Below, piece after piece: positions 2,888-20,962 of a DNA stretch of 28,287 bases; position 1 is the stretch's first letter; the number at the start of each line of letters is the position of its first letter. The translations under genes and the position numbers were made by a program. The DNA comes from Bryobacteraceae bacterium (GTDB taxonomy: Bacteria > Acidobacteriota > Terriglobia > Bryobacterales > Bryobacteraceae): NCBI GenBank assembly GCA_030036985.1, contig JASHSD010000109.1:1-28287 (forward strand). The letters are read 5' to 3'. Below the pieces are notes generated by a model, which searched no databases, had not been told where the DNA came from, and was given only the letters and a program-made list of their open reading frames with translations.

Positions 2888-3126
2888 AAACCATTCATTT
2901 TACATCAGTTATTGGCAGTCTGCCGGAGTTACCCAGAGTTATGCAGACATTGGACTTGCAGCGTCCGGTGCCCTAGCTGAGTTTTGATCAGATCCGACGA
3001 TTTCGGCGGAGTTCGCACACTACCCGCACACAGCCCGGCACGGCCGTATTTGCCGCATCTGGTCTAACCCCGGGCCGTCGCGAAGTTCGTTTGATGAGAT
3101 TGTTCAACGCGGGTTATAAATCTGGT

Positions 3127-3369
3127 ATGTCCTCTCCCGGCGCCAGTTCATTTTCGTCTGAAGGCAGCACTCGTCTACGGCTTCTTAACGTAAAAGAGGT
3201 AGCCAAGAGACTCGACCTATCGCTCCCGAGGGTTTACGAACTGGCCCGCGGTGGCATCCTTCCAGTTGTACGGCTCGGGAGACAGATTCGCGTGGACGAA
3301 GGCCGCCTGATCGCGTGGATCAATGACGGCGGAAGGGCGTTGCCGGGCGGCTGGAGGCGCGACCCCTGA
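3127..3369 (+). CDS. Excisionase / HTH_17-type small DNA-binding protein
   Basis: 80 aa from ATG 3127 (start uncertain; ORF opens at 3091). LLNVKEVAKRLDLSLPRVYELARGGILPVVRLGRQIRV is the typical xis/MerR-like wHTH pattern, ~240 bp inside the att fragment. Confidence 0.8.
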   Translation: MSSPGASSFSSEGSTRLRLLNVKEVAKRLDLSLPRVYELARGGILPVVRLGRQIRVDEGRLIAWINDGGRALPGGWRRDP

Positions 3370-5673: not shown

Positions 5674-6345
5674 ATGGCACTAATCATTCCATTGACGCAG
5701 TGCGCCTCTGGCTCTGAGCCCAACACGGACAATGAAGCCCTGAAGGAAAAGCGCCGCAAAATTAAGGAAGCGCTGCTGAACAACCAGCAGATCAAGGTGA
5801 CACCTCAGGGGAATTTGGCGACCAACCCCCAGGATACTGGAATCGTCGTGCCGGAAGGGAAGCTGGCTTCGTTTTACTGGTATGAAGCTGATCCTGACCT
5901 TTATCGCGCCGAGATGGAGGCGATGCGAAGGTACTTTCCCACGTTCCGGCTCGACAAGGAGTCCGACGGACGGTTGTCTTGGGTCGGTCCAGTGACGCCG
6001 GGACTGATAGGAAGGCATCCGAGAACCTATACACTCCAAGCTGTGTACGACCATTCGCATCCTTCGAATGATACCTACGGAGGTTCCGTGAAGGTATACT
6101 CGGTCGATCCCGACCTGGAGGAAGTGGCGGACGGCGAGAGAATACCGCATACGCTCCGGGACAGCGAAAACGAACTTTATATTTGCACGGCGCGAAAAGA
6201 GGATGTCAGGGCGGGAACAAGCGCTGGTAGTACGGTCACAACGGCCGCGGTTGCAATTAGCTGGGCAGTAAAGTGGCTATCCGTCTTCGAGCTTTGGTTG
6301 AATGACGAGGTTTCTGACGAAGAGTTTCAGGGGCATGCATTCTGA
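5674..6345 (+). CDS. Prokaryotic E2 (ubiquitin-conjugating fold)-like protein with ~65 aa N-terminal extension
   Basis: Start reassigned to ATG 5674 (GAGGTG RBS), 223 aa. E2-like succession: helix (LYRAEMEAMRRYFP), strands (LSWVG, YTLQAVY), HP turn, then IPH(159)...LYIC(171), matching HPN...GxICL with a putative catalytic Cys171 (6184-6186). JAB and E1 genes follow. Confidence 0.72.
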   Translation: MALIIPLTQCASGSEPNTDNEALKEKRRKIKEALLNNQQIKVTPQGNLATNPQDTGIVVPEGKLASFYWYEADPDLYRAEMEAMRRYFPTFRLDKESDGRLSWVGPVTPGLIGRHPRTYTLQAVYDHSHPSNDTYGGSVKVYSVDPDLEEVADGERIPHTLRDSENELYICTARKEDVRAGTSAGSTVTTAAVAISWAVKWLSVFELWLNDEVSDEEFQGHAF

Positions 6346-6351
6346 GGGACT

Positions 6352-7305
6352 ATGTTCTCAAGCCCCGCCATTTATCTCAGCGATCGATCCTACACGGACA
6401 TCCTGAATGAGACCTCCCAGCACCTCGACACGGAAACCGGTGGCGTGCTGATCGGGGAATGTCGGCAAAACAAGTGGTTCGTCGTCGAGTCGATTGATCC
6501 GGGGCCGAAAGCGGTTCTCCAGCACTCTTATTTTGAGTACGACCAAGCCTACGTCAATCACCTTTCCAACAAGGTGCGACGACGTTACGCGGCGCCCCTC
6601 AGGCTGCTGGGGCTTTGGCACCGGCATCCAGGTAGCTTCGATCGGTTCTCGGGGACGGACGACGGAACGCACCGCCGATACATTCAGCAATGCAACGGAG
6701 TCATCATCTCGGGATTGGTGAACATCGACCCGACGTTTCGCTTCACTTTTTATTTTGTTGACGGCGAGCCACCTCACCACCAGAGGACCGACTACGCTGT
6801 CGGTGACCAGCATTTCCCGCCCGATCTTCTGCGGACCCTCGATGAGCGGACGCTTATTGGCAGGGTGAACGGATCTTCTGATCTGCCACATAGACCAGTC
6901 CAGGAACTGCAGATCATCGACAAGCGCCCGGCATCTTCCGCACTGATGGAACACATTGTGAATCCGATCAGGGATTTGTTTGGCGTTCAAACTCAAACAA
7001 CCGCTGTCGATGCGAGGGAGATGCCCCAAGCAGTCGTTGATGGCGTTGCGAACGTGGCTCTGGAAATGCTCGACGAGGAGCTCGCGTATCTCGACTCGCA
7101 GCGGGATTTTGAATACGAACTAGAGATGTCCCCACGCGGCGTGCTACTAACGATGCAGAAGCTTTCTGGCTTTAGGGGCGCTGGACAAGGCGTGAGATTC
7201 TTATTTACGGTCGAGGATCAGCAGCGCATCGTCAGGTACGGAACCCACTCATATGCGTTTCGCAAGGGAATTGTCGAAGAAGTCATTGGGCAGATGTTTT
7301 ACTGA
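6352..7305 (+). CDS. JAB/MPN+ (JAMM) metalloprotease with C-terminal extension
   Basis: Complete JAMM motif: E28 (ETGGVLIG) and H90-x-H92-x7-S100-x2-D103 (LGLWHRHPGSFDRFSGTDD). About 170 extra C-terminal residues are unassigned. Confidence 0.9.
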   Translation: MFSSPAIYLSDRSYTDILNETSQHLDTETGGVLIGECRQNKWFVVESIDPGPKAVLQHSYFEYDQAYVNHLSNKVRRRYAAPLRLLGLWHRHPGSFDRFSGTDDGTHRRYIQQCNGVIISGLVNIDPTFRFTFYFVDGEPPHHQRTDYAVGDQHFPPDLLRTLDERTLIGRVNGSSDLPHRPVQELQIIDKRPASSALMEHIVNPIRDLFGVQTQTTAVDAREMPQAVVDGVANVALEMLDEELAYLDSQRDFEYELEMSPRGVLLTMQKLSGFRGAGQGVRFLFTVEDQQRIVRYGTHSYAFRKGIVEEVIGQMFY

Positions 7306-7320
7306 CGGTGAAGCACTCTT

Positions 7321-8469
7321 GTGGCCAAAGATCGTGGGTATAAGGTCCTCCTTCCTGTCGAAATCGTCAACGGCCGCGTAACCGGGCCGCTTTACGGCTA
7401 CCACCATCCTGAAACCGGGGTGTTCAACGTAACCTCGTGCGGGGAGCTGTCTCCTCTTGAAACAGGTCGCCCGTGCGCGAGGCTCGGCACGCTCTCTGAC
7501 GCTTCCTCTGTGGCCGCTGGGGAGGGCGAAGGCCTGATTGGCCGCTACATTGACAACAAACCCGTCTTCACCTGCAGCGGGCAAGATTGCGAACTTCATT
7601 ATTACGCTCTGGTCCAAGATGTATTCTCCCGTAACCATGGAATCCTGGAAACCAGCGCCCTGCTTCACGCCAGGGCAGTAATCTCCGGCTGCGGCTCAGT
7701 CGGCAGCCAGGTGGCTTTGGATCTCGCGAGGTCGGGCGTGGGAAACTTTTTCCTGATCGATAACGATCAGCTCGCCTACCACAATCTATGCCGGCATCAG
7801 TGCGGGATCAGCGACGTGGGGCGGCTGAAAGTGGATGCCGTCAGGGACCGCATCCTGGAAATCAATCGAAATGCAAAGGTGCGGGTGGCACCCACCATCA
7901 TCGAGCGCATCGCCAAGGACGTGTGGGAAGCATGGCTCGACCATGACACTGTGATCGTCGGTTGCGCTGACAACCGCGAGGCGGACGTCTACGCGAACCG
8001 TCTTTCGCAACTGTACATGGCGCCCTTCGTGTCGATCGGTTTGTGGGAACGGGCCTTCGCCGGGGAGCTGTTCTGGAGCATTCCGGGAGAGACGCCTTGC
8101 TATTACTGCGCGTTCGGCGCAAAGACCAACAACCTGTCTTTCAGGCCCTCCCAAAACCGGAGAGTCTATACGACGGAAGAGGACCTGGGCAAACTGACCT
8201 TCGAGCCCGGCATAGCCGTTGATATCGGGTTCGTGACGAATATCGGCATCAAGATCGCGCTCGACCTGCTCGGCAGGGGCAGGCGTCCGATGCGTCTTCT
8301 TGACGACATCAAGCAATTCACGCTGGTCTGCAATACGACCAACGTCCAGGTCGCCGGAGACCTGCAGGAGATTTTCGACCATGCGCTGCAGGTGACGAGA
8401 TCCATCGACGTGGAAAAACATGAAGAGTGCCCGCACTGCCGCGTGGCCGGAAAAGGGCGTGAAGCATGA
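7321..8469 (+). CDS. E1-like ThiF/MoeB-family adenylyltransferase
   Basis: GTG start, 382 aa. GCGSVG nucleotide-binding loop, LIDND..HNLCRH, GRLKVDAV, GCADN, and Zn-binding C260xxC263 / C370xxC373. About 100 aa N-terminal extra domain. Confidence 0.92.
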   Translation: MAKDRGYKVLLPVEIVNGRVTGPLYGYHHPETGVFNVTSCGELSPLETGRPCARLGTLSDASSVAAGEGEGLIGRYIDNKPVFTCSGQDCELHYYALVQDVFSRNHGILETSALLHARAVISGCGSVGSQVALDLARSGVGNFFLIDNDQLAYHNLCRHQCGISDVGRLKVDAVRDRILEINRNAKVRVAPTIIERIAKDVWEAWLDHDTVIVGCADNREADVYANRLSQLYMAPFVSIGLWERAFAGELFWSIPGETPCYYCAFGAKTNNLSFRPSQNRRVYTTEEDLGKLTFEPGIAVDIGFVTNIGIKIALDLLGRGRRPMRLLDDIKQFTLVCNTTNVQVAGDLQEIFDHALQVTRSIDVEKHEECPHCRVAGKGREA

Positions 8470-11400
8470 GCAACGGGGGCAGCATGAACGCCGCGCATGA
8501 TCGGCGCGAGACGGAGTTGTGCGGCATCGCTCTTCTCGGGCAGCATTACTCGACTTTTTGCCAGAATCCCGCGAGGGTCAGGCGGGAAATTCTCTTCTTC
8601 ATCGACCATCGCTGGCGTCTGGCCGAGGATGAAAGGCAATGGTGCGCCGGCCTGCTGTCCGAAGATGACGGCGAGGCGCGCGATGGTGTCGGCCTTGTTC
8701 GGCAAATGGGCAGTGTTCTCGCGCCGGAGGACCTTACCGGACTGGCCCAGTGCCTGGGCTGGTTTGACGCAGGCGATGGAGCCATGCAGTCTTTGCTGCG
8801 CGATCTACTCGCCGGAGCACAGTCTCCGGTCGCGCACGGGGAACTTTTTCCTGAGCCGGTGTTGACGGCTTTTGGAGTGCTGGGCACCGATCCGACGCTG
8901 GACGCGGACGCGGTGAACCAGATCTATAAGCAGAAGATGAAGGTCCTGCATCCGGATGCCCGTGTCGGCGTCGAACTCAACGCGCGCGAGAGCGCTGAGG
9001 CGGATTCAGTCGTGAGACGGCTGACTGACGCGCGAGAGACGATCAGAGCGCATTTCGAGACAATGAGCCGCGCGTCATCCGGCCCGACCGGCCGGCCGCC
9101 GCCGGCGGAGCCAATGGAAGACGACAAGACGTGGAATCTCACGGCGCGCACGCGCGAACTCGGGCAAAGGGTCCAACAAACAATTGAAGCGGCCCACGAG
9201 ATCATTAGGGAAACCGATCAGCGAATAGAAAACGCCCGCAACAAGCGGCAGGCAGACATAGCGGCTATAAACAATCTGGCGGCGCCCCCCCGGCAGGAGG
9301 CCGAGCACCTTTTGAGCAATGCACGCGCGCATCTGACGGCACAGGGCGCCGAAGTGGCGGTGCTCCATCGACCGGATTATCGCGGGGCGGGGCCAGCCGG
9401 AACGGATCTGCGCGACGCGCGCGCGGCCATATCCAGCCTGAAATCGCTCGTTGAGGATCAAGTTCTCAAGGCTTCGAAGCCCAAGCAGGCGTGGCGTCCC
9501 AACAGTGACGGAGGCGGCTGCGCAATGGTGATCGTCGCGATTTTTGCGGGCGCGATCGGCGCCAATCTTGCCGGCAACTTCCTGGGTTTCCTCGCCGGTT
9601 TTGCCGCCGTCTGCGGCGGCGTCATGTGGTGGCTTCACCACGATCCTGTTTCACGGCTGCGGTCCGTGTCTTCGGACGTCGAAGGGCGCGGGTATCAGGC
9701 GCTCGCCATCATCGACCAGTACACAAGAGAAACCACCGCCCGGGCGGACGCGGAACTTCAATCGGCGGAGCAGCGATTTCGCAGTGAAATCGCCCAACTC
9801 GACCGGTCCTTGCAGGGCCAGGCGGCGGAGCTTCAGCGTGAGATTGCATCCCTTTGGGCGGATGCGCGGTTTTCATGCGCGGAGTGGAACGCGGCTGACT
9901 GGGACAAGTGGCGTCCCTCGTCGGCTCCGGCGTTCGCGGCCCGTTTTGCCACGCTGACCGCTGAAACCGCCGACCTCGGCCGTCGCCTGACAGCAAATTT
10001 GAGCTTCGTCGTTCCAGCCCTGGCGCCTTTCCCGGAAGGGCGCGCCCTTCTGCTCAAGGTCTCGGGGGCCGCGAAGGACGGCGCGGCGAAGGCCATCCAG
10101 TCCGCGCTGGCCCGCCTGCTGGCGACGATCCCGCCCGCGAAGCTGCGCTTCACATTCATCGACCCCATCGCGCTCGGAAGCAATGTCGCGGCCTTCATGC
10201 CCTTGGCCGACCACGAAGAGTCGCTCGTTACCAGCCGTGCCTGGAGCGAGCCGCATCACATCGAGCAGCGCCTCGGCGATTTGACCGAGCACATGGAAAC
10301 GGTCATCCAGAAGTATCTGCGCACCGAGTTCAAATCGATCCATGACTACAACGAGGCCGCCAAGGAAGTCGCGGAGCCGTACCGGTTCGTCGTCGTGTTC
10401 GATTTTCCGGTCAACTTCACCGACACGGCGGCCCGTCGCCTGATCAGCATCGCGCGGAATGGCGCGCGCTGCGGCGTTTATTGTCTGGTCGTATGCGACA
10501 GCGGCAAGCCGCTGCCGTACGGATTTTCCCTCGATGAATTGCGACGATCATCCAGCGTCATTGAGGCCCCCACCGGCAAGCCTGAGACCGAACTAAGCTG
10601 GGCGGACCCGGACTTCCAATCCTGGCGCCTACAGCTTGACGCGGGCGCGCCGCGTGCGATCTTGGCGCGTGTCATCGGCGCGGTCGGCGGGCTCGCGAAG
10701 GACGCCATGCGCGTAGAAGTGCCGTACAGCAAGCTGCTCTCGCTTGCACAACTGGGCAACGGGAACTGGTGGAAAGCGACGACTGCAAAATCGATTCGCG
10801 TGCCCCTCGGCCCGACGGGCGCGCGCAAGCTGCAATATCTCGTGCTGGGTGAGGGCATGGGCCATCATGCGCTGATTGTGGGCCGGCCCGGTTCGGGGAA
10901 AAGCAACCTGATGCATGTCATCATCACCACACTGGCGTTAACCTACCCGCCGGAGGAGATCAGGCTATACCTGATCGACTTCAAGAAAGGCGTCGAATTC
11001 AAGTGCTACGCCGACTTTAAGCTGCCGCACGCGGAGGCGATCGCCATCGAGAGCGAGCGCGAATTCGGGCTGAGCGTGGTCGAGCGTCTCGACGTTGAAC
11101 TGAAGCGGCGCGGCGACCTTTTCCGCGGCGCGGGATCGGCCAATATCACCGAGTACCGGGAGAAGACAGGGCAGCAGATTCCCCGCGTCCTGCTGCTGGT
11201 CGATGAGTTCCAGGAATTCTTCACGCAGGACGATCAGGTCGCGCGTCAGACCACGCTGATCCTCGACCGCCTGGTGCGGCAAGGACGCGCTTTCGGCATT
11301 CACGTCATACTGGGATCGCAGACGCTGGCGGGCAGCTACAATCTTTCCCGCAGCACGCTCGACCAGATGGCCGTGCGCATCGCCATGCAGTGCAGCGAGG

Positions 11401-12473
11401 CCGATTCACGGCTGATCTTGTCGGACGACAATCCGGCGGCACGGTTGTTGTCGCGGCCGGGCGAGGCGATCTACAACGCGGCGAGCGGCCTGGTCGAGGG
11501 AAACAACCTGTTTCAAGTGGCGCGGTTTTCCGAGGAGGACGGCGCCGAGTGCCTAGCGCTCGTCGGGCGGATCGCGCGCGATTCGGGCAGGAGGGTCGGC
11601 GTGCCCATTGTTTTTGAGGGCAACGAACTTGCGCATATGGTCGATTGCCGGAAGCTGCGGGATCTCCTCGGCGCGGCCGACTGGCCGGAGCGGCGGAGCG
11701 TCGAACTGCTGCTCGGCGATCCGATCGCGATCAAGGATCCCGTGGCCGTGCGCCTTCTACGGCAAAGCGGGAGCCATCTCCTCATCCTGTCACGCGACGA
11801 AGCGGAGGGCGTGGGCATGTGCGTTGCGTCCGTCGCCAGTATCCTGCTCCAGCAGCGGCCCGGGGATGCGCAGGTCTTCATTGCCGATTTCACGCTGGCG
11901 GACAGCGAATGGGCCGAGCGCGCCGAGGATATCGAGAAGCATTTCCCGCACCAGATCAAGGTGCTGAGCCGCCAGCGCGAAGTCGCCGACGCCGTCAAGA
12001 CCATCGCCGAGGAGGTCAGGCGCCGGGGCGACCCGCCTCCGGAGCGTTCCAGCATCTATCTCGTCATTCAGGGAATGCACCGCGTGCGGGTGTTGCGGGG
12101 CGACGACGAGTCGTTCGCTTACGAGGATGACCGCTCGACCCCGGCCGAACATTTCGCGGCGATATTGCGCGACGGCCCCGAGGTCGGGATACATGTGATC
12201 GCCTGGTGCGATACGTACGCGAACGCTGGGCGCGTCGCCGACCGCCGGATGATTACGCAGTTCGGCCTGCGAGCGGGCGGCGCGATGAGCGCGGACGATT
12301 CGATGAATTTCTTCGATGACGCGGCAGCCTCACGCATCGACAAACCGCATCGCATCATCTTCTTCGAAGAGGAGCGACCGGGCCAATTGGAGAAGTTCCG
12401 CCCTTATTCAATGCCACCGCGCGATTGGCTGGAAGAGGTCGGGGGACGGCTCCGCGCGCGGACGGCTTCTTGA
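8466..12473 (+). CDS. EccC/EssC-like FtsK/SpoIIIE ATPase with N-terminal helical + DnaJ (HPD) domain and two TM helices
   Basis: 1335 aa, ATGA overlap with the E1 stop. J-domain YKQKMKVLHPD (HPD 8949-8957), coiled coils, TM hairpin (~9520-9635). One intact ATPase (Walker A GRPGSGKS 10881-10904; Walker B LLLVDEFQ; GRAFGIHVILGSQ) is flanked by two degenerate FtsK-like repeats. Confidence 0.9.
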   Translation: MSNGGSMNAAHDRRETELCGIALLGQHYSTFCQNPARVRREILFFIDHRWRLAEDERQWCAGLLSEDDGEARDGVGLVRQMGSVLAPEDLTGLAQCLGWFDAGDGAMQSLLRDLLAGAQSPVAHGELFPEPVLTAFGVLGTDPTLDADAVNQIYKQKMKVLHPDARVGVELNARESAEADSVVRRLTDARETIRAHFETMSRASSGPTGRPPPAEPMEDDKTWNLTARTRELGQRVQQTIEAAHEIIRETDQRIENARNKRQADIAAINNLAAPPRQEAEHLLSNARAHLTAQGAEVAVLHRPDYRGAGPAGTDLRDARAAISSLKSLVEDQVLKASKPKQAWRPNSDGGGCAMVIVAIFAGAIGANLAGNFLGFLAGFAAVCGGVMWWLHHDPVSRLRSVSSDVEGRGYQALAIIDQYTRETTARADAELQSAEQRFRSEIAQLDRSLQGQAAELQREIASLWADARFSCAEWNAADWDKWRPSSAPAFAARFATLTAETADLGRRLTANLSFVVPALAPFPEGRALLLKVSGAAKDGAAKAIQSALARLLATIPPAKLRFTFIDPIALGSNVAAFMPLADHEESLVTSRAWSEPHHIEQRLGDLTEHMETVIQKYLRTEFKSIHDYNEAAKEVAEPYRFVVVFDFPVNFTDTAARRLISIARNGARCGVYCLVVCDSGKPLPYGFSLDELRRSSSVIEAPTGKPETELSWADPDFQSWRLQLDAGAPRAILARVIGAVGGLAKDAMRVEVPYSKLLSLAQLGNGNWWKATTAKSIRVPLGPTGARKLQYLVLGEGMGHHALIVGRPGSGKSNLMHVIITTLALTYPPEEIRLYLIDFKKGVEFKCYADFKLPHAEAIAIESEREFGLSVVERLDVELKRRGDLFRGAGSANITEYREKTGQQIPRVLLLVDEFQEFFTQDDQVARQTTLILDRLVRQGRAFGIHVILGSQTLAGSYNLSRSTLDQMAVRIAMQCSEADSRLILSDDNPAARLLSRPGEAIYNAASGLVEGNNLFQVARFSEEDGAECLALVGRIARDSGRRVGVPIVFEGNELAHMVDCRKLRDLLGAADWPERRSVELLLGDPIAIKDPVAVRLLRQSGSHLLILSRDEAEGVGMCVASVASILLQQRPGDAQVFIADFTLADSEWAERAEDIEKHFPHQIKVLSRQREVADAVKTIAEEVRRRGDPPPERSSIYLVIQGMHRVRVLRGDDESFAYEDDRSTPAEHFAAILRDGPEVGIHVIAWCDTYANAGRVADRRMITQFGLRAGGAMSADDSMNFFDDAAASRIDKPHRIIFFEEERPGQLEKFRPYSMPPRDWLEEVGGRLRARTAS

Positions 12474-12492
12474 GACGAAAGGTTGATTTCAT

Positions 12493-12777
12493 ATGCCTCA
12501 ATCCGATATTCATGTTGACCCTGACCGCCTGTTGGCCATCGCCGAGGAACTGAGCATGTTTTCGGGCGACATCAGGACCGAGTTAACCGTGCTTGACGGC
12601 GAGCTTGCCCGGCTGGGGCGCAGCTGGCAGGACGAGGAATACACGAAGTTCAAGCGTGCGATTCAGCCGCTGCGACGGGTTCTGGACGAATTCCAGCAGG
12701 AAATCGCGCGCAGCAAGCCGGACATGTTAGCCGACGCCGAGGCGATTCGTGTCTACCAAAGACTTAAGACCCCCTAA
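12493..12777 (+). CDS. WXG100/ESAT-6-like protein
   Basis: 94 aa helix-turn-helix pattern with central SW45QD..Y..F and an N-terminal VDPDRL motif; directly downstream of the FtsK ATPase. Confidence 0.8.
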   Translation: MPQSDIHVDPDRLLAIAEELSMFSGDIRTELTVLDGELARLGRSWQDEEYTKFKRAIQPLRRVLDEFQQEIARSKPDMLADAEAIRVYQRLKTP

Positions 12778-12782
12778 AAGCC

Positions 12783-13055
12783 ATGCCATCCGCCATCGTC
12801 ACACCAGCTGAACTCGTCGCCTTCGCGCGGCATCTTTCAAAGACCGCGGATAGCGTCGCCAAGCGCCGCAACAAGGCCGCCCGGCTCGTCGGCGATGCTC
12901 GAAGCGTCTGGAAGGACGCCAAGTACGACCGTTTCCGCAAGACGTTCGATCAGACCGTCAAGGACCTGGACCGGTTCGTCAGGCTTGCGGAGGACTACGC
13001 CCAGTTCCTGGAACGCAAGGCCGGACTGGCGCGCAAGTATCTTGACAACCGGTGA
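12783..13055 (+). CDS. WXG100/ESAT-6-like protein
   Basis: 90 aa; N-terminal VTPAELVAFA and central VW43KD..Y..F; tandem partner of the previous gene. Confidence 0.8.
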   Translation: MPSAIVTPAELVAFARHLSKTADSVAKRRNKAARLVGDARSVWKDAKYDRFRKTFDQTVKDLDRFVRLAEDYAQFLERKAGLARKYLDNR

Positions 13056-14035
13056 CGACGGTGCGAGACAGCGCCAAAGTCCGGAGCGAAGCCATCGCCG
13101 CGTTCGAGACGGCGCTTGGACGGTTTGCTGCCGCCGCTCTTGAACGCGCCAAGGCGGCGGAGACGACGCTGCGGCGGACGACGGGCCAGCTTGAGGAACG
13201 CCGGGCCGCTTTGCGCCGCGAAATGTCGCGTCTGCGCGACGAAATCGAGAACGCCGAAGAGGATGACGAGATAAGCCACGCGCGGCGGCAATACGAAGAC
13301 GCGGAGGAAGCGCTGTCAAACCTCGTCAGGTGGCAGCGGAATGTCGAGGCAACCGCCGCTTCCTATCAACGTGAAGCGGCCAAGCTGCAGGATCTGGGCA
13401 CCGGCATGACCGCCGAGGCGCGCGCAGCTCTGCGACGGGTCCTTGAAAACCTGGGGGCTTACTTCGCCTTACAAAAAGACGGGGCCGTGATCGGCCGTAC
13501 CGGCGGGGCTCTCGCTGCGGACCGCGCGGGACCCGAAGCGGACGGCGATCCGCGCCGCATTCGCGCCGTGGCGTCCGTCCTCCTGTCCCTGCTGGCCTTA
13601 AGGCGGGAAGCCTGGGACAACGCGGCTTCGCCCAATGCCAGGCTGGAGGCTCTGCAGGAAGCCGAAAACCGCATCGCGGATGTGACGGGGCGCCCGGCGC
13701 TGCCGGTGTTGCCGGCGGCGCTTGAGGCGCAAGAATACGGCGTATGCGACGGCGAGACAATCTGGATAAACGATGAGCACCTCGGACCCGGAAGCAGTCG
13801 CGAGATGATCAGAACGATCGTCCACGAAGGGCGTCATGCGTATCAATATTACGTTTGCGCTAACGCGGCGGCGCATGGCGATGCTGCCGAAGTCGAGGCC
13901 TGGCGGACGAATCTCTGCCAGTATGTGGAGTGGAAAGAGAATCCTGCGCGGTACGCGAGCCAGCCGGTTGAGGCCGACGCTTTTGCCTGCGAGGACGCGG
14001 TGATGGAGGTTTACTTGAACGAGGGAGGTGACTAG
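13052..14035 (+). CDS. Helical-hairpin (WXG/LXG-like) N-terminus fused to a zincin metallopeptidase-like domain; candidate effector
   Basis: GTG start with GTGA overlap, 327 aa. About 140 aa of coiled coil, then IWIN...TIVH258EGRH262AYQY and a downstream QPVEADA (third ligand Glu). Confidence 0.75.
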   Translation: MTTVRDSAKVRSEAIAAFETALGRFAAAALERAKAAETTLRRTTGQLEERRAALRREMSRLRDEIENAEEDDEISHARRQYEDAEEALSNLVRWQRNVEATAASYQREAAKLQDLGTGMTAEARAALRRVLENLGAYFALQKDGAVIGRTGGALAADRAGPEADGDPRRIRAVASVLLSLLALRREAWDNAASPNARLEALQEAENRIADVTGRPALPVLPAALEAQEYGVCDGETIWINDEHLGPGSSREMIRTIVHEGRHAYQYYVCANAAAHGDAAEVEAWRTNLCQYVEWKENPARYASQPVEADAFACEDAVMEVYLNEGGD

Positions 14036-14388
14036 TGGAAACCGGGAATTCGACGGGCCGACGCCTTGATCCAGTCGTGATAGCGGCTCGGCTTGTTGAG
14101 GAGTTCGGCTATTCGCCCGCCAGCGCCGAAATCACAGCGCTTGACCTGACCAACTGTTCTTCAAAGGTATGGGATGAGTTCAGCCGCTGGTGGCAAACAG
14201 GCGCGCTTGGCCCGCCGGAGGTCGAGGGGTTCTCGGCGGCGCAGCTGGTCCGCGATCACTCCCTCCTTCCGCCGGCCGCCTTTCTGATGCTCGACTGGCT
14301 CTTGAGAGACCCATCCGCCGCCAAGGCAGCGCTCGCGCGCGGATATGACTCGGTGGGTCATGGGCCCGCCGGGAGGAGGGCGCGGTGA
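14035..14388 (+). CDS. Small helical hypothetical protein; candidate immunity/inhibitor of the upstream peptidase
   Basis: 117 aa, GTG start overlapping the upstream TAG by 1 nt, with a GGAGG RBS. The function is inferred from position only. Confidence 0.6.
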   Translation: METGNSTGRRLDPVVIAARLVEEFGYSPASAEITALDLTNCSSKVWDEFSRWWQTGALGPPEVEGFSAAQLVRDHSLLPPAAFLMLDWLLRDPSAAKAALARGYDSVGHGPAGRRAR

Positions 14389-14476
14389 GATCAGGACAGA
14401 AAAGTTATCCGGGGCGGCGCGGGAGGCCTTGGCGCATTTTTTGGACTGGCTGCGGCCAGCTACGCAGGGATGAGTC

Positions 14477-14689
14477 ATGAGCCGAATGCGGGACCTTCAT
14501 GCGGAGGCGCGGGCGGAGTGGTCGCGCCTGCAGGAATGCTGGGAGGAGGCCCGCAGTCAGTGGCAGGATGACGTTGCTGACGAGTTCGAGCGGCATCGCT
14601 GGCGGGCCTGGGAGGAGCGCGTGCCGGTCTTCCTCGACGCATTGGAAAAGCTGGAGGAAATCACCAGCCGCGCTCTCAGGGAAACATAG
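14477..14689 (+). CDS. Short WXG100-like helical protein
   Basis: 70 aa, all-helical, with QW29QD..A..F, the same W-x-D turn motif as the two upstream WXG100-like genes. Confidence 0.6.
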   Translation: MSRMRDLHAEARAEWSRLQECWEEARSQWQDDVADEFERHRWRAWEERVPVFLDALEKLEEITSRALRET

Positions 14690-14828
14690 GCACATCTTTT
14701 GAAGAGAGTCAGTTATTCTTCCAGCGCGCGTTATCGATTGACGGCGCGGGCAGTCAAGGCATGGCGTCCTCGGCGGAACCCAACGTATCCCGACAAGATC
14801 CCGCAGTGTCGCTACGCTTGCATCAGCT

Positions 14829-15329
14829 CTAACAATTGGAATCGTTAACACGCGGACGCGGGCGCAGCCGGTAACCGAACTTTCGCGAACTTTGTATCAT
14901 CCCGCGGGGCTGCTGCTCCCCGGGGATCTCGAGCTGGCGCCCGAGGCGATATACAATTTGCTGGAGCGCACGCTTGCTCACCGGGCGGCCGGTCCGTTTC
15001 CGTACGGCCTCAAGCAGGTTGTCTAGTGTAATCCAGCCCTGCGCCTTGAAGAGAATGTCGAGGACCTGTGCCAGACTCTTTGTCAGCGAAAGTGTTTGCC
15101 CCCCGACGGACACCAGAACGCGCCCCGGCACAGTAACTCGGCCGGTTCTGCCGACGCCTAGTTCGAGGCGTGGATGCAAAGCATCACGTACGGCCTCCAG
15201 ATCCGATTTCGCCCGCACCATCGCTCGATAACCCTGCCGATAGCATTCGAGAGCCTTTTCCACGCTCAAGGCTGCACGATCGACCAGAACGTTCAACTGC
15301 CCCTTTTCGCGGGTGCCGAGGGACGTCAC
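14829..15329 (-). CDS. OmpR/PhoB-type winged-helix DNA-binding protein lacking a receiver domain
   Basis: C-terminal LSLTKSLAQVLDILFKAQGWITLDNLLEAV..SKRALQQIVYRLGRQL..IQSSRKFGYRL matches Trans_reg_C. The N-terminus is a short helical segment. Divergent from the 15536 operon. Confidence 0.75.
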   Translation of the reverse strand: MTSLGTREKGQLNVLVDRAALSVEKALECYRQGYRAMVRAKSDLEAVRDALHPRLELGVGRTGRVTVPGRVLVSVGGQTLSLTKSLAQVLDILFKAQGWITLDNLLEAVRKRTGRPVSKRALQQIVYRLGRQLEIPGEQQPRGMIQSSRKFGYRLRPRPRVNDSNC

Positions 15330-15366
15330 GGATATAACTACGAAAGGAATCCCCCTTTTTTCTGCT

Positions 15367-15386
15367 AGGTCACTGGAAGATGACCT
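15367..15386. promoter_or_regulatory. Palindromic candidate operator AGGTCA-N8-TGACCT
   Basis: Perfect 6-8-6 inverted repeat in the divergent intergenic region 15330-15535. Confidence 0.35.
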
Positions 15387-15535
15387 CTGCGCGGCAGCTT
15401 ACGGTTTTTGCACACCGGCACTAAAGAAAAATTACGCGCAAAACCGAAAAACAATCCGGGGCCCGCGTACTAGCTCTCGAGCCGGGCTGCTTTTGCGGCG
15501 TTCGCCCGGCCCGAATCTTGACGAGGGGGGAATGC

Positions 15536-16348
15536 ATGTTTCGAGGAGTTGTCGTTCTTTCTCTGATCGCGGGTGGTCTTGCGGTCGTAGCATATGTCAA
15601 CAACTGGGCTCCGTTCGCCGGAGAGACCCGATCGGTCGCCGCCCATTCCGGGAGCGCGCCCGCGGAGAAGTTTTCCGCGGACGCTCGACCAACCTCTGGT
15701 TCCCCGGGCGATTGCCGTGCTTACAGCGTATTTATTGATCCCACCACATCGACCCGGGACAGAGTAAATTACAAGCCGGAAATGGACAAGTTCATGAATC
15801 GGCTCCATTCATGCGACAGCGTCAGGGTTGGGCGCGTTGCGGACCGCACTTCAGATGAGGCTTGGGTGCTGCCATGGCAGGAGCTGCCTGTAGCCGATCC
15901 GAACGCCGGAGTCGTCGATGACACCGAGTTCAAGGTCAAATACCGAAAGGCGAAAAGCGCGATTACTCGGGCGGTGGACCGCCTGCTCGCGGAAGAATCG
16001 CCGGCGCTCTCGACAGATGTTCTGGGGCTTCTGCTGCGACTCTCGCCTGACCCCGGGCGAATCAATGTGCTCACGGTGCTTTCGGATGGCCTGGATACCA
16101 AGACCATCGAGAACGCATGTATAACGAAGCAGTCGATTCAGGGTCTGTTGGATAAGGCTACCGCTCGCCTCCAGCCCCGCGGGGGGCTGCTCGCTGGCTT
16201 CAGGGAGGTTTTCTGGGTAATGCCGACGAATGCAGGCCGCCAGAACTGCAATGCGCTACAGGAACAGCGCCTTTTTTGGCCGCCCATTCTGGAAGCCGAA
16301 GCTGCGCCGGGCAAACCGGGCATCCACTTCGACACGAACGTATTCTAA
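15536..16348 (+). CDS. Exported/membrane-anchored VWA-like (MIDAS) protein
   Basis: Start reassigned to ATG 15536 (GAGGGGGG RBS), 270 aa. N-terminal hydrophobic anchor and MIDAS-like VFIDPTTS...STDVLG...LTVLSDG. Four Cys could form disulfides. Confidence 0.7.
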   Translation: MFRGVVVLSLIAGGLAVVAYVNNWAPFAGETRSVAAHSGSAPAEKFSADARPTSGSPGDCRAYSVFIDPTTSTRDRVNYKPEMDKFMNRLHSCDSVRVGRVADRTSDEAWVLPWQELPVADPNAGVVDDTEFKVKYRKAKSAITRAVDRLLAEESPALSTDVLGLLLRLSPDPGRINVLTVLSDGLDTKTIENACITKQSIQGLLDKATARLQPRGGLLAGFREVFWVMPTNAGRQNCNALQEQRLFWPPILEAEAAPGKPGIHFDTNVF

Positions 16349-16358
16349 CGAGGCTGCC

Positions 16359-16898
16359 ATGAACGATAAGGAACTTTTTTTCAGTAAGACCGAGTCGCAT
16401 AAGCCGCAGGTCATAGAGATCGCGTCCGAAGCCGGTCTTCACGACCTCGACTCCGCGGCAGCGCGCGAAATGATTTCGAAATGGGTCATGGAGGACGCGA
16501 CTGCTGTGGGGCTCGAGCCTTTGTCCAGCGTGGGCGCCCTTAAGAACCGGTTGACCGCCCTCGAATCTCGCCAGGATCTCCATCGCCGACGGATCGCGCT
16601 GGCCCTCGGCCGGTTTGTGGGCACGGCGTCCAAGGCGGCGCACACCAGATCAGGCCGCATATTCGAGGGCGCGATGGATCTCGGTTCGATGGCGGCGAGA
16701 CCCACCTCGCTCGCGTTGCTCTTTCCGCGGGTCGCTTTCGTTCGGGGCGCTTTGGGGCGGGCTGAGAAAAAGGACGCTGAACGCCATCAGATTCGCGCAG
16801 TCGCTTCCGAGACCCTGCTCGCACTGTACGAACATTATCGGATTCGCGGCGCCGCTGCGGCGACGCCGGACGCCAAGATAAAGAAAGTGAGGACGTGA
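16359..16898 (+). CDS. Hypothetical helical protein
   Basis: ATG 16359 with GAGG RBS, 10 nt after the VWA stop; 179 aa, predicted helical; ends 6 nt before the next gene. Confidence 0.6.
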   Translation: MNDKELFFSKTESHKPQVIEIASEAGLHDLDSAAAREMISKWVMEDATAVGLEPLSSVGALKNRLTALESRQDLHRRRIALALGRFVGTASKAAHTRSGRIFEGAMDLGSMAARPTSLALLFPRVAFVRGALGRAEKKDAERHQIRAVASETLLALYEHYRIRGAAAATPDAKIKKVRT

Positions 16899-16904
16899 AC
16901 CACC

Positions 16905-18014
16905 ATGCAAGCCGAAACTCGCATTGAAGCGATGATTGAAACGATCGACAATCTGTCAACGGAAGAAAGCGTCAATCAGTGTATGCTCGGAATCTCCGCG
17001 GCGCTCGACTCAGTGCGCAGAGAAGCTCAGCGGCGCATCTCGTCGGCGTTGATTCGAGCTGCAAGCGATTTCCGCGTGTGCCTGGACGAATGGCAAGCCG
17101 CGCGGGCGGCCTGTGCGGGCATCGAGGCTTCAATGAAAGCCCTTGGCCCAGTCGGGGTCATCGTTGCGCTCGTTGCGCTCATCTATCTGGCCGCCGCATA
17201 TGCGGGGTTCAGGACAGAGGATATTCTGACAGCCTCTCTGGCGTACCTTCTCAATCTGAAAGCGAATGATTCTGCTGCGATCTGGCTCCGGATAGCGTTC
17301 GCGGCTAGCCTGCTGCTGTTTGAATTCCTCATCGTCCGCCTGCGTCTCCTTGACGATCCGTGGCCTTTGCTGCGGGATTCCACGCCGGAGGATGCGGCGC
17401 GGCGAGGCTACCGGGCGCGAGTCGCAGCCGGAGTCATCATCATTGCCGCCATGCTCGCAACCGGGGCACTGCAGCTGCAGTCTATCGTGAAGATGGCACC
17501 CACTCGCGAACAGGCAATGATCATGAAGAGGGATGCGGCGAATCCCGAGGCGCCACCTATCCCCGTCGACGAGAAAGTGGTGGGCGAAGCCGTGCTGTGG
17601 TTTTCCATCTGCGTGCTCTTCTCAAGCGGCTACCTCGCCGCGGCAGGCATACGCGACTTAAAGCGTTGCACAGCCGTGTTCTTCCTCCGGTTCCGTTCGC
17701 TGAAGGACTGCACGAAGCGGCTCGAAGCGAGTCGCGCAAAGCTGGACAATGTGGCTGCGCCGGCGCTGGCTGGGGAGTTGGCTTCGTGCGGCCTGCCGTA
17801 CGTCTGGCTCCTGGCACCCGAAGTCACCGAAATGAGGATCGAGGGGCTTTCAGGCGAAAAGATAACGGTTCCCGGTATCCTGGAGGCGGCCGAAAAGGAA
17901 AGTCAGGTTTATGAGGCTCACCAGCGGCACATACTCGAGGATGCAAGAGCGCGCCGGCGTTCCCCCAGATCCGCTCTGGAACGGGTTGACCTGACGCTTG
18001 GAGAAGAGGCCTAA
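16905..18014 (+). CDS. Four-TM membrane protein with flanking coiled coils
   Basis: 369 aa with four hydrophobic segments (VGVIVALVALIYLAAAYAGF; AAIWLRIAFAASLLLFEFLIV; VAAGVIIIAAMLATGAL; AVLWFSICVLFSSGYLAAAGI). Confidence 0.75.
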   Translation: MQAETRIEAMIETIDNLSTEESVNQCMLGISAALDSVRREAQRRISSALIRAASDFRVCLDEWQAARAACAGIEASMKALGPVGVIVALVALIYLAAAYAGFRTEDILTASLAYLLNLKANDSAAIWLRIAFAASLLLFEFLIVRLRLLDDPWPLLRDSTPEDAARRGYRARVAAGVIIIAAMLATGALQLQSIVKMAPTREQAMIMKRDAANPEAPPIPVDEKVVGEAVLWFSICVLFSSGYLAAAGIRDLKRCTAVFFLRFRSLKDCTKRLEASRAKLDNVAAPALAGELASCGLPYVWLLAPEVTEMRIEGLSGEKITVPGILEAAEKESQVYEAHQRHILEDARARRRSPRSALERVDLTLGEEA

Positions 18015-18581
18015 TGCGGGCTGAGCTGCGACCGTCAGTACGGGCCAGCCTGCGGGTCACTCAACCAGATAACAGTTTTATTCAGACGAAGAATGTGCTG
18101 GATGAGAGGAAACAACGGTCCGGCAGCACCGGGCGGATATCTGCGCAAATAGGCCGGCCCGGACCCCTCAATACGCCAGTCTCGACGTCGAGCAGAGCTT
18201 GCAAGTAGTTCGCGAGCAGTGCCGTCTCAAACCCCGCGCTCGCGTTGTCGACACAACAGATTACGACGTCAGCTTTCTTGATCGCGAGAACGATTGGATA
18301 TCGGGACCGGAGCCATCGGAGCCGTCACCACGCGCGGAGGGGCAGTCTGCCGGTGCGGCCACTGTAGAAATGACGGTCCTCGAAGCGAGGGTAGCGGTGG
18401 CCGGGCTGATTGCGGAAGAGACCTTGGAAGGTGATACAAAGTCCATCGCGGCGGACAGGGCCGTTAGACCCCCAATGGGATGTTCGAGACGAATGTTACC
18501 GTAGAGCTGTGTCTGTATCGCAATCACTCCTCGATTGCGGACAGGCAGTTAGTGCGCCCTGAGTTGTCGTCAACAGCAAGG

Positions 18582-19244
18582 TTAAATCGGACGCGGGCGG
18601 CCTGGCGTGCGCATGGCTTGGTCCCGATCCCACATTCCCCCTGCTAATGTCGTCAACGAACTCGGGAAGAGGAAGCCGAAGATCGCGCCACCCAGACTAG
18701 GCAACTGCCAAATCGCGGTCACGAGAAGGCCCATGGGAATGCCCACTATGAAAGGCAGGATCAACATAAGCTTCTCGCCCGCTCCGTCCCGTCGTGCGCC
18801 ACTCGTTAGCAACCGACCTATGCACAGGGCAATCGTCACGGACCCCGCCAGTCCGATCACTGCACACGATAAAAAAAAAGCCGTGCCGTACTCACGTGCG
18901 AAATGCTGCACCAGTTGCCTATCTCCAATCGCCACGGCGCACAGCACACCTGAATACGCCAACCAAATTATGGATCCGTTCGCCAAACAATGCCAGAGAA
19001 CGTTGATTCGGAGCGATGTCGCATTGTCCCGGACGCGAATCCCCATGCCAAGCCGCTGCCCAATCGCCAGTCCGACAAAACCCACCATTACCGAGACCCC
19101 GAGCGCCAAGGCACCAGATCGTCCGAGTTTCGCTAACTCGTCAAGTCGTTCGAACCTTAGATGCCAGTGGGCCTGCGCCGCGCGAAAAGCTGGCCAGCCG
19201 CAGCCGAAGAAGCCCACGGTGCCGAGGAAGCGGCAAATTCCCAT
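18582..19244 (-). CDS. Multi-pass membrane protein
   Basis: About six hydrophobic segments. Start uncertain: ORF is open to 19328; ATG 19244 was chosen to avoid a head-to-head overlap. Confidence 0.6.
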   Translation of the reverse strand: MGICRFLGTVGFFGCGWPAFRAAQAHWHLRFERLDELAKLGRSGALALGVSVMVGFVGLAIGQRLGMGIRVRDNATSLRINVLWHCLANGSIIWLAYSGVLCAVAIGDRQLVQHFAREYGTAFFLSCAVIGLAGSVTIALCIGRLLTSGARRDGAGEKLMLILPFIVGIPMGLLVTAIWQLPSLGGAIFGFLFPSSLTTLAGGMWDRDQAMRTPGRPRPI

Positions 19245-19298
19245 GCATAGAAACGGAGTGTCACCAGTCACTACGCCGCTCCGAAATCCGCTTGTGCC

Positions 19299-19847
19299 AT
19301 GCTTTTCAGTCGACCTATTGTGTATCATTACAACGATAAATTGTCACCTGTGAGACTGTCGGCTGCTGCTTCGAGGAACTTTCGCCCTAGCCCTCTGTCC
19401 ATCGTGCACTATTCGTTCGGAATCGGCTACGCCGCAGTGGGCGCTTTCTTGATTTGGCGTTCGCCTCATTTCAGCTGGCCTGCTGGCATTGGCGCCACTT
19501 CTTCGTTCACAGGGCTCTGGATGTTTCTGACGACGCGAAGCGTCCGCAGAAGCTGGTGCGTCATCACGCCAGAGAAAGTCTCCATCGTGGGCGTTCGCCA
19601 GCACTCCAATCTGCCGTGGAACGAGATGCTCGAAATCGTTATCCGCGAACGTGCGAGCGGAATAATCCCCGGTCGCGCAGATCGGCAGGTGGTATTCCGT
19701 CCCGTCGGCGGTCTGGACCACCCGTTCAATTGCTCCGTTCTTGCGGAGTCAGACGAGCGCGCGTTTCTGGATGAGATTCGGACGCATGCTCGGTGCGCAA
19801 TTCGCGTTGTGCGGGACGCCGCAGCGACGGCGAAACCGTGGAAGTGA
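19299..19847 (+). CDS. Two-TM protein with a bacterial PH-like C-terminal domain
   Basis: Two hydrophobic helices, then CVITPEKVSIVG..NLPWNEMLEIVI, a bPH-type pattern. The true start is probably downstream (e.g. GTG 19350). Confidence 0.55.
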   Translation: MLFSRPIVYHYNDKLSPVRLSAAASRNFRPSPLSIVHYSFGIGYAAVGAFLIWRSPHFSWPAGIGATSSFTGLWMFLTTRSVRRSWCVITPEKVSIVGVRQHSNLPWNEMLEIVIRERASGIIPGRADRQVVFRPVGGLDHPFNCSVLAESDERAFLDEIRTHARCAIRVVRDAAATAKPWK

Positions 19848-20498: not shown

Positions 20499-20962
20499 CG
20501 CGGATCCTTTCGCAAAACTTGGAGTTTGCTGTGTCCGCGCCGCGCACTTATTCTCGTCGTCGGCGTCGCTCCCAAAGCCAGTGGGATGGCCGTACAGAGC
20601 CGAGTCGATAGGGATCTGAGGGAGAGCGCGGTGCCGGCCGGATAAAGTGACGGTTCGCCCACGAACCAGGCACAGACTGCGCCAGCCAGCGCAGCCGCCG
20701 CTAGCGGCAGGGCCAAATGTAGGGTGGCCCGGTTCGGGGACTGGTCGGCAACGCGCAATGCCAAGTAGATCGTGCTGCCGAGCACCTCTCCAGCACCAAG
20801 CGTCAGCAGCAGGTGAACCAATAACGCTTTCCCAGGGTGAAGAAGGGCATACCAGGGATGCGCCACGAATAGCGGAAAATGAATCAATCCCGCAGCCATC
20901 CAAATAACCCCTCCATTCGCTAGATAAATGGCGTATCGCGCGCCTTCGTTCGGTCTAAACAC
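20486..20962 (-). CDS. Small multi-pass membrane protein
   Basis: 158 aa, GTG start overlapping the CHAT gene stop by 8 nt; three hydrophobic segments. Confidence 0.5.
   Translation of the reverse strand: MFRPNEGARYAIYLANGGVIWMAAGLIHFPLFVAHPWYALLHPGKALLVHLLLTLGAGEVLGSTIYLALRVADQSPNRATLHLALPLAAAALAGAVCAWFVGEPSLYPAGTALSLRSLSTRLCTAIPLALGATPTTRISARRGHSKLQVLRKDPRWRK

Follow-up and report, generated by a model that had tools for sequence, protein, structure and literature searches.

The window analysed here is the entire 28.3-kb contig JASHSD010000109.1 of a metagenome-assembled genome (MAG; 6.6 Mb, 88% complete) whose sample source is peat. Between positions 5674 and 14689 it carries an operon of nine tightly packed genes, all on the + strand, in which a set of ubiquitin-like conjugation enzymes runs into a module resembling a type VII secretion system (T7SS). 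The genes encode, in order, a tag–E2 protein, a JAB peptidase, an E1, a J-domain–ATPase protein, two WXG100 proteins, a toxin composed of a helical hairpin and an HExxH domain, its probable immunity protein and a WXG-like protein. They are separated by 6, 15, -4, 19, 5, -4 and -1 nt, with a gap of 88 nt before the ninth gene. All nine open reading frames (ORFs) delineated in a first-pass annotation of the same DNA were confirmed, with coordinates and the first seven gaps unchanged. Library scans reproduced its domain calls (E2, JAB, E1, FtsK and two WXG100 proteins), and the catalytic motifs that it had described as intact (E2 Cys 171, JAMM, the GxGxxG and zinc sites of E1, Walker A and B, HExxH) are all present. 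A consensus scan within the block found no excess of promoter- or terminator-like sites over shuffled sequence. The features are as follows (aa, amino acids; AF2, AlphaFold2; pLDDT, predicted local distance difference test).

5674–5868, +, probable modifier (tag), residues 1–65 of the E2 product, ending IVVPEGKLA; supported by conservation, tandem units, free ORFs and an AF2 model
5869–6345, +, E2-like core of the Cap2 E2/PF26395 type; PADLOC E2 models, E 5e-13; catalytic Cys 171, HPS(N) at 129–132
6352–7305, +, JAB/JAMM metallopeptidase, Cap3-like; PF14464, E 2e-7, above the gathering score; PADLOC JAB, E 6e-12
7321–8469, +, E1-like adenylating enzyme of the ThiF/MoeB/Cap2-E1 type; ThiF, E 8e-30; PADLOC E1-E2 models down to 3e-27
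8466–9080, +, adaptor fused to the ATPase, residues 1–205: conserved N-domain and J domain, HPD at 162–164; assigned by homology to stand-alone J proteins
9081–12473, +, EccC/EssC-like ATPase core; FtsK_SpoIIIE (PF01580), E 8e-32, and a second weak FtsK match at aa 533–660
12493–12777, +, WXG100 protein 1, 94 aa, W-x-D variant; PF06013, 31.2 bits (gathering score 27.3)
12783–13055, +, WXG100 protein 2, 90 aa, W-x-D variant; PF06013, 31.3 bits (gathering score 27.3)
13052–14035, +, polymorphic toxin, 327 aa: long hairpin at aa 2–142 (LXG-like in form), disordered linker, alpha/beta HExxH zincin at aa 167–323; AF2 pLDDT 90.6
14035–14388, +, probable immunity protein, 117 aa; 1-nt overlap with the toxin gene, co-varies with the zincin domain
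14477–14689, +, third WXG-like protein, small and helical (70 aa), from the constant final gene, conserved in every module; weak NCBIfam WXG100_ESAT6 match, E 0.009

The enzymes of the first three genes have kept their active sites. Cys 171 of E2 is invariant in 25 of 25 homologs, which also show little or no variation at H129 and P130; Pfam PF26395 (E2-CBASS) is recorded on these homologs. In JAB, residues E28, H90, H92, S100 and D103 are invariant in 19/19 sequences; the protein shows partial NCBIfam matches to Cap3 and to 6A-MBL cap2_3 and ends in a variable C-terminal extension of ~190 aa. The E1 starts with an N-terminal domain of ~100 aa. Its G123-x-G-x-x-G128 motif is invariant in 19/19, and the zinc site (C260/C263/C370/C373) is kept in 17–18 of 19. 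Moreover, C337 and Y283 are invariant, and the set R275, R280, Y283 and C337 is conserved in 18–19 of the 19 relatives.

Relatives of the E2 were found at 19 genome loci, among them loci of Vicinamibacterales, Cytophagales, Thiomargarita, Planctomycetia, Ignavibacteria, Campylobacterota, Victivallis, cyanobacteria, Melainabacteria, several Clostridia and one Methanosarcina. In all 16 loci where the three genes could be read, they follow the order E2-JAB-E1 as three separate genes, and the conjugation cassette stands without the T7-like module in no fewer than 14 loci, spread over eight phyla or more. Thus, E2-JAB-E1 is a widespread, separately mobile cassette related to Cap2/Cap3. Its usual partner is a gene for a small membrane protein with the N-terminal motif [IF]-[DN]-[DE]-x-G-[EQ]-[FI]-[VI]-R (for example, MPINERGEFVR). 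In this protein, the motif is cytoplasmic and is followed by a low-complexity linker, one transmembrane helix and a variable outer domain, the outer domains including PEGA, MORN and Laminin_G_3. The partner gene directly follows that of E1 or of a J protein in loci L010, L011, L013, L014, L016, L017, L020, L021, L026 and L028–L030. One or two copies also stand after the last gene of sister operons of the one in the window (L001, 11714–12994; L032, 18558–19232 and 19317–20672). Such a recurrent partner could be either a target or an effector of the cassette.

The further neighbors of stand-alone cassettes are mixed. Some are of conflict type, such as TPR-CHAT proteins (L029, L030), a PBECR3 nuclease (L010) and an SbcC-like ATPase with HIRAN (L017); other stand-alone cassettes adjoin housekeeping genes. 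The locus L019 from a Marvinbryantia sp. MAG is a conflict-type island (7206–19504) that encodes an NB-ARC/TPR STAND protein, a free tag ORF stopping at GKLA, E2 and E1, together with FtsK-LRR-Roc-COR, Macro and TIR-FHA proteins and a 90-aa WXG-like ORF. No JAB was detected in this locus, which coincides with a tag that needs no trimming.

The N-terminal leader of the E2 product had been suggested separately, in the reading of the sequence that preceded this work, to be a modifier, and this suggestion gained support. The residues P60, G62, K63, L64 and A65 (P-x-G-K-L-A) are invariant in 25/25 E2 homologs. Head-to-tail tandem copies of the same unit occur in L010 and L025, and L024 has a tandem with a variant motif. 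Moreover, it is encoded as free-standing ORFs, which stop right after GKLA in L019 (Marvinbryantia) and L022 (Methanosarcina) or end in GKLAT (L014) and GKLASF (L012). Since the unit occurs both in tandem and as free-standing ORFs that end at or near GKLA, the leader is likely to be a separable polypeptide, and it is probably the modifier. In the AF2 model, it consists of a helix (residues 18–35) and short strands with pLDDT of 85–91, while residues 63–67 form a low-confidence linker. In type II CBASS (anti-phage signaling systems based on cyclic oligonucleotides), Cap2 activates a non-ubiquitin C-terminal tail of the CD-NTase, and Cap3 trims it and reverses the conjugation (10.1101/2022.03.31.486616). 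By analogy, we infer that the 65-residue tag is freed by JAB and then conjugated via E1 and E2.

The fourth gene encodes a protein of 1335 residues, of which the larger part is an ATPase with a helical stalk, a hydrophobic hairpin (aa 353–391, nt 9522–9638), two FtsK domains of which the first is degenerate and the second active, and a C-terminal domain that is degenerate as well. The active domain (aa 775–1005) has Walker A GRPGSGKS at 806–813 and Walker B D913/E914. The closest solved structures are those of the T7SS ATPases EccC (1e-35), EccC5 and YukB rather than that of the DNA translocase FtsK; NCBIfam gives partial EccCa, EssC and EccCb matches below the cut-offs. A search with the ATPase returned >120 relatives, chiefly from metagenomes of Planctomycetota, Acidobacteriota and Verrucomicrobiota. 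All contexts inspected have the same four genes downstream of the ATPase, encoding a 94-aa WXG protein, a 90-aa WXG protein, a protein of ~305–330 aa and a protein of ~70 aa. Both WXG100 proteins of the window score below the NCBIfam cut-off, and they are conserved in all modules. The T7-like module also occurs without the conjugation cassette and with other ATPase N-termini (L003, L004 and the P0015 contig).

What varies across the ATPase family (P0007–P0120; L003, L004) is the N-terminal domain that precedes the membrane hairpin. The alternatives include GYF with ribosomal L12 and IF2_N, S1, Clp_N, Sel1/TPR, WD40, a Ser/Thr kinase and a zinc ribbon. Because many of these exchangeable domains bind translation or proteostasis factors, the position suggests an input or a sensor. 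The operon itself has no EccB/D/E, MycP or EssA/EssB/EsaA, and YukD (PF08817), EccB (PF05108), YukC/EssB (PF10140) and additional WXG100 genes were not found in the 88% complete MAG. For this reason, 'minimal', as the module had been called at the outset, is a fair description.

In the window, the N-terminal position of the ATPase is occupied by a domain pair that belongs to the conjugation cassette. In L028, L029 and L030, a stand-alone protein of ~200 residues, made of the N-domain and the J domain, is encoded directly after E1. Residues 13–202 of the window ATPase match the 195-aa protein of L028 with 39% identity (E 7e-49), and the equivalents in L029 and L030 are homologous. Pfam DnaJ is detected with E 0.0045 in the window protein, below the gathering score, and with E 1e-5 in the L028 homolog. 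A profile of the adaptor sequences matches solved J domains with E 2e-4, and the HPD motif is invariant in five homologs. A metagenome scan with the adaptor profile yielded one marginal locus. In view of these similarities, an in-frame fusion has joined the J-domain adaptor gene of the cassette to the N-terminus of the ATPase. Moreover, the E1 stop codon overlaps the start codon of the fused gene (ATGA, 4 nt). The operon as a whole is therefore a chimera of two separately mobile cassettes.

We asked whether the chimera recurs, as the first-pass annotation had proposed to check. The full order E2-JAB-E1-J::ATPase-WXG-WXG-toxin-(immunity)-70-aa protein is found in four operons: in the window, in L001/L002 (a Vicinamibacterales MAG), in JGI 3300041809 and in L032/L033. 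The halves thus co-occur across taxa. Protein identity among the four operons is 79–83% for E2 and 61–67% for the ATPase. Eight J-bearing ATPases were found, L032 included. In a quick maximum-likelihood tree (IQ-TREE) that included seven of the eight, these form one clade (SH-like approximate likelihood ratio test, 100) nested among ATPases without a J domain. Since the J-bearing clade is single, the join of adaptor and ATPase arose once in this lineage. A further contig, L024 from Oscillospiraceae, carries a three-domain ATPase of the same family, which aligns with the window ATPase over 762 aa (E 1e-44) and stands directly before a two-unit tag::E2, JAB and E1. Its gene order is different, and it represents an independent pairing of the same two families. 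Taken together, the recurrent order, the in-frame fusion, the single ATPase clade and the L024 adjacency bear out the original proposal that the two halves are linked. A decayed copy was also observed in JGI 3300075153. There, a Mu/Tn7-like transposon (rve, AAA_22) sits in place of E2 and JAB, E1 is retained, and the J::ATPase gene is split into ORFs of 799 and 538 aa.

The seventh gene had initially been taken for a peptidase component of the system. Comparison of sister operons gives a different picture, that of a polymorphic toxin with an exchangeable C-terminal domain. Nucleotide identity between the window and L032 is 71% from the E2 start to the first WXG gene; it is lost across the toxin gene and regained in the last gene. 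The toxin C-terminal domain is a zincin in the window (H258-E259-x-x-H262 and E307) and ParB-like in L032. Thus, sister operons have swapped toxins while keeping the enzymes. An exhaustive sequence search found the hairpin N-domain joined to at least four different C-terminal domains, and the HExxH...QPxExDA zincin domain at the C-terminus of many otherwise unrelated proteins. The toxin has weak matches to SprT-like, DUF6782 and PprI/IrrE. Fold searches with the toxin model returned generic helical hairpins and a weak PprI/IrrE match, neither of them decisive. There was no Pfam match to the LXG domain (PF04740) on the toxin and none in the MAG. The GGD at the C-terminus of the toxin was considered as a specific substrate mark and rejected, as GG ends are common throughout the zincin family.

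The 117-aa gene that follows is present only where the toxin carries the zincin domain (the window, L001/L002 and JGI 3300075153). It is absent where a ParB-like C-terminal domain was shown (L003, L004 and L032), and also in JGI 3300041809 and the P0015 contig, where gene sizes point to a ParB-like domain. No family match for its product was obtained in library scans. From this co-variation, the gene is probably the immunity gene of the toxin. Such an arrangement follows the logic of polymorphic toxins and their immunity genes, with small helical partners as in the LXG format.

How widespread is the operon, and in what host does it reside? RecA from another contig of the same MAG is 95% identical to a Bryobacteraceae sequence; provided that the binning is correct, the host would be a diderm, Bryobacteraceae-like Acidobacteriote. 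Among 400 other sampled genomes of the phylum, E2 is present in none and the ATPase core in two. An HTH_17 excisionase-like gene lies upstream of the operon (3091–3369), an integrase flanks the sister operon L032/L033, and integrase, excisionase, transposase or type IV secretion system genes border copies. ARAGORN found no tRNA genes in the window, for which a tRNA-Leu 3' fragment had been proposed as an island boundary. The sporadic distribution and the flanking mobility genes indicate that the operon is island-borne, as the first-pass annotation had supposed.

These observations lead us to the following reading. The operon would be an accessory conflict system in which tagging switches the handling of the WXG–toxin complex by the ATPase, and it would reside on an integrative element of its diderm, Bryobacteraceae-like host. 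JAB would cleave the E2 precursor after Ala 65 to yield the free tag, the C-terminal Ala of which would be adenylated by E1 and handed to Cys 171 of E2. E2 would then transfer the tag to a target, at the motor or close by, which may be the adaptor/ATPase, a WXG partner, the toxin cargo or a protein of an invader. The adaptor is envisaged to keep the enzymes at the ATPase, and also DnaK through the HPD motif. Tagging would switch the deployment of the WXG–toxin complex, the likeliest output being translocation across the inner membrane, and JAB would finally remove the mark and reset the state. For the setting and the whole chain of steps taken jointly, we put the probability at about one half. 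Within this scheme, export is slightly favored over release of the toxin inside the cell. The most specific version, in which a reversibly conjugated GKLA tag of ~55–65 residues with a non-ubiquitin fold turns T7-type toxin export on and off via the J adaptor, strikes us as possible rather than probable.

Several observations weigh against this reading. The AF2 model of the tag has no recognizable beta-grasp fold, and Foldseek searches with the E2 model gave UEV, E2 and BilB as top matches, all of them weak. Between C263 and P296, the crossover loop of E1 lacks a cysteine, so the transfer chemistry may differ from that of Cap2; the tag may pass from the adenylate straight to E2, or it may travel via an unusual residue. 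Most E2-JAB-E1 cassettes are found without any FtsK, so the enzymes do not need one. The partner membrane protein with the I-N-E-R-G-E-F-V-R motif was not found in the window by either motif scan or tblastn. In addition, the single origin of the join means that the four operons do not count as independent evidence. Finally, neither outer-membrane components nor further T7SS components turned up in the 88% complete MAG. With a diderm host and no envelope-spanning parts, export past the inner membrane is unexplained.

In a rival explanation, the T7-like half is not an exporter at all but the killing arm of an abortive infection response. Upon a tagging signal, the ATPase would strip or unfold the WXG partners and the immunity protein, and the toxin would be released inside the producing cell. 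Besides the diderm host in which envelope-spanning parts were not found, this fits the suicide- or defense-type effectors that adjoin stand-alone cassettes (L010, L017, L019, L029, L030) and the sensor-like appearance of the variable ATPase N-terminal domains. However, the ATPase has retained its membrane hairpin and EccC-like layout, and the cargo comes in the format of T7 export, with a hairpin carrier, small helical partners, a swappable toxin and a cognate immunity protein. Moreover, IMG/VR yielded no E2 relatives, and a link to phages was not seen. We regard an abortive infection arm as unlikely. The two halves might also be independent neighbors on an island, with the J–ATPase fusion a neutral accident devoid of regulatory meaning. 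Each cassette is indeed common without the other, their association in this lineage has a single origin, and unrelated systems are often packed together on islands. Yet eight proteins that have diverged to as little as 56% identity all retain the fused frame, the HPD motif and every catalytic residue, and toxins have turned over while the enzymes were retained. The 4-nt overlap of the E1 and ATPase genes points to coupled translation, and the same two families became adjacent independently in Oscillospiraceae. In the one copy from which a transposon removed E2 and JAB, the ATPase gene is split as well. Mere adjacency is, in our judgment, improbable.

A third explanation stays closest to CBASS and dispenses with a separate tag. 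Here, E1 would activate the C-terminus of the cargo itself, for example that of the toxin (...NEGGD) after trimming by JAB, and E2 would couple this cargo to the machine or to some target. Cap2 acts in this manner on CD-NTase tails (10.1101/2022.03.31.486616), and the toxins of the window and of L001 both end in EGGD. But a GG near the C-terminus recurs across the zincin family in any context, and in sister operons that have the same enzymes, the toxin is ParB-like and ends in ...KTGKECE. Furthermore, the enzymes are present in many loci without any toxin, whereas the PxGKLA unit accompanies every E2 and is also encoded as a free ORF ending in GKLA. Activation of the cargo C-terminus is thus highly improbable, and we retain the reading in which a separate tag, freed from E2, acts on the motor.

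How does the operon relate to known systems? Its E2, E1 and JAB are of the same lineages as those of type II CBASS Cap2/Cap3 (class 6b; Iyer et al. 2006, PMC1779556). As in CBASS, the probable substrate is not a classical ubiquitin fold, and a JAB is available for trimming or reversal. Unlike in CBASS, where Cap2 is an E2-E1 fusion, E2, JAB and E1 are encoded by three genes, and the probable substrate is an E2-fused peptide ending in GKLA rather than the tail of a partner enzyme. The cysteine-less crossover loop of E1 and the coupling of the set to a J adaptor and a T7-like ATPase are further differences. PADLOC gave no CD-NTase or effector matches among the operon proteins; SMODS (PF18144) has no match in the contig and none above the cut-off in the MAG.

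The other half has precedents as well. A 'mobile T7SS', consisting of solo WXG proteins and a YueA-like ATPase with three HerA/FtsK domains of which the middle one alone is active, was noted by Zhang et al. (2012, PMC3482391, Table 1 footnote 6). The module described here shares with it the ATPase layout, the WXG partners, the occurrence in Gram-negative lineages and the mobile context. The footnote does not mention conjugation enzymes, a J adaptor or toxin cargo, all of which are present in the window. The same study reported toxins in T7SS neighborhoods of Firmicutes, Actinobacteria and Chloroflexi alone (PMC3482391); in contrast, our module has a polymorphic toxin in Acidobacteriota. With T7SSb, its LXG toxins and Lap targeting factors, and the T7SSc-j variants (PMC11217815; PMC9600955; 10.1101/2023.07.21.550046), it has in common an EssC/EccC-type membrane ATPase, WXG100 proteins, the helical toxin carrier, the small helical partner genes, the swappable toxin domain and the downstream immunity gene. 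Unlike these systems, it lacks EssA, EssB, EsaA, YukD/EsaB and FHA domains, Pfam LXG does not match, only one ATPase domain is active, and the host is diderm. The ubiquitin-like component of known T7SS is never conjugated and comes with no E1/E2, whereas E1 and E2 are present here.

Similarities extend to other bacterial systems with ubiquitin-like conjugation. Bil (BilABCD) and Bub (10.1101/2023.09.26.559546; 10.1101/2024.11.21.623953) likewise combine E1, E2, a deconjugating peptidase and a modifier, and reside on mobile or defense islands. However, they use a free beta-grasp ubiquitin-like protein (Ubl) and a CEHH-type or diverged E2. In our case, no beta-grasp gene was seen in the operon, the probable modifier is fused to an E2 of the E2-CBASS type, and a secretion-type motor lies further along the same operon. 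The FtsH ternary conflict systems (Kaur et al. 2020, PMC7159879) are similar in that modifier and E2 form one polypeptide, with release by JAB predicted, and in being multi-component conflict systems with chaperone-type ATPases. They differ in having a true Ubl, a RING-type E3, vWA-MoxR, FtsH and caspase effectors, and no FtsK/WXG module.

The first-pass annotation recognized no characterized system that joins the two halves, and this stands for the combination. PADLOC and NCBIfam have no system model joining both halves, the operon classes 6a–6e of Iyer et al. (2006, PMC1779556) do not include the pairing, and in the literature searched no paper joins WXG100/EssC/T7SS with E1/E2/JAB, Cap2 or Cap3. 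It does not hold for the T7-like core taken alone, which had already been noted as the 'mobile T7SS' (PMC3482391). Neither half amounts to a CBASS or a T7SS in the full definition of these systems. Each is of a known kind; of interest are the physical adaptor fusion, the probable E2-born peptide tag and the Gram-negative host.

A ubiquitin-like protein is part of almost all T7SS; its conjugation has never been observed, and its role is an open question (PMC11217815). With its T7-type motor fused to the adaptor of an E1/E2/deconjugase set, the operon makes control of export by tagging directly testable in nine genes. If the proposed reading is true, ubiquitin-like conjugation would here gate a secretion-type machine for the first time, and would do so in a Gram-negative host; the delivery of polymorphic toxins by T7-like modules would reach diderm phyla. 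To our knowledge, the bacterial ubiquitin-like pathways known so far are those of CBASS, Bil and Bub defense. A short, E2-born modifier that plugs into effector arms as diverse as membrane proteins, CHAT proteases and a secretion motor would widen the field.

Two further loci in the window lie outside the operon. On the - strand, positions 20955–25145 encode a TPR-CHAT protease of 1396 aa that adjoins a gene for an extracytoplasmic function (ECF) sigma factor. TPR-CHAT genes of ~800 aa also follow two stand-alone E2-JAB-E1-J cassettes (L029, 4495–6888; L030, 13846–16251). We considered the window protein as a member of the operon and rejected this, as phmmer found no specific similarity to the genes after the L029 and L030 cassettes; it was treated as a separate system. 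At the left end of the contig, a gene on the + strand (27–1028) has a strong Pfam Volactin match (E 2e-77) and is followed by unannotated genes and the HTH_17 gene.

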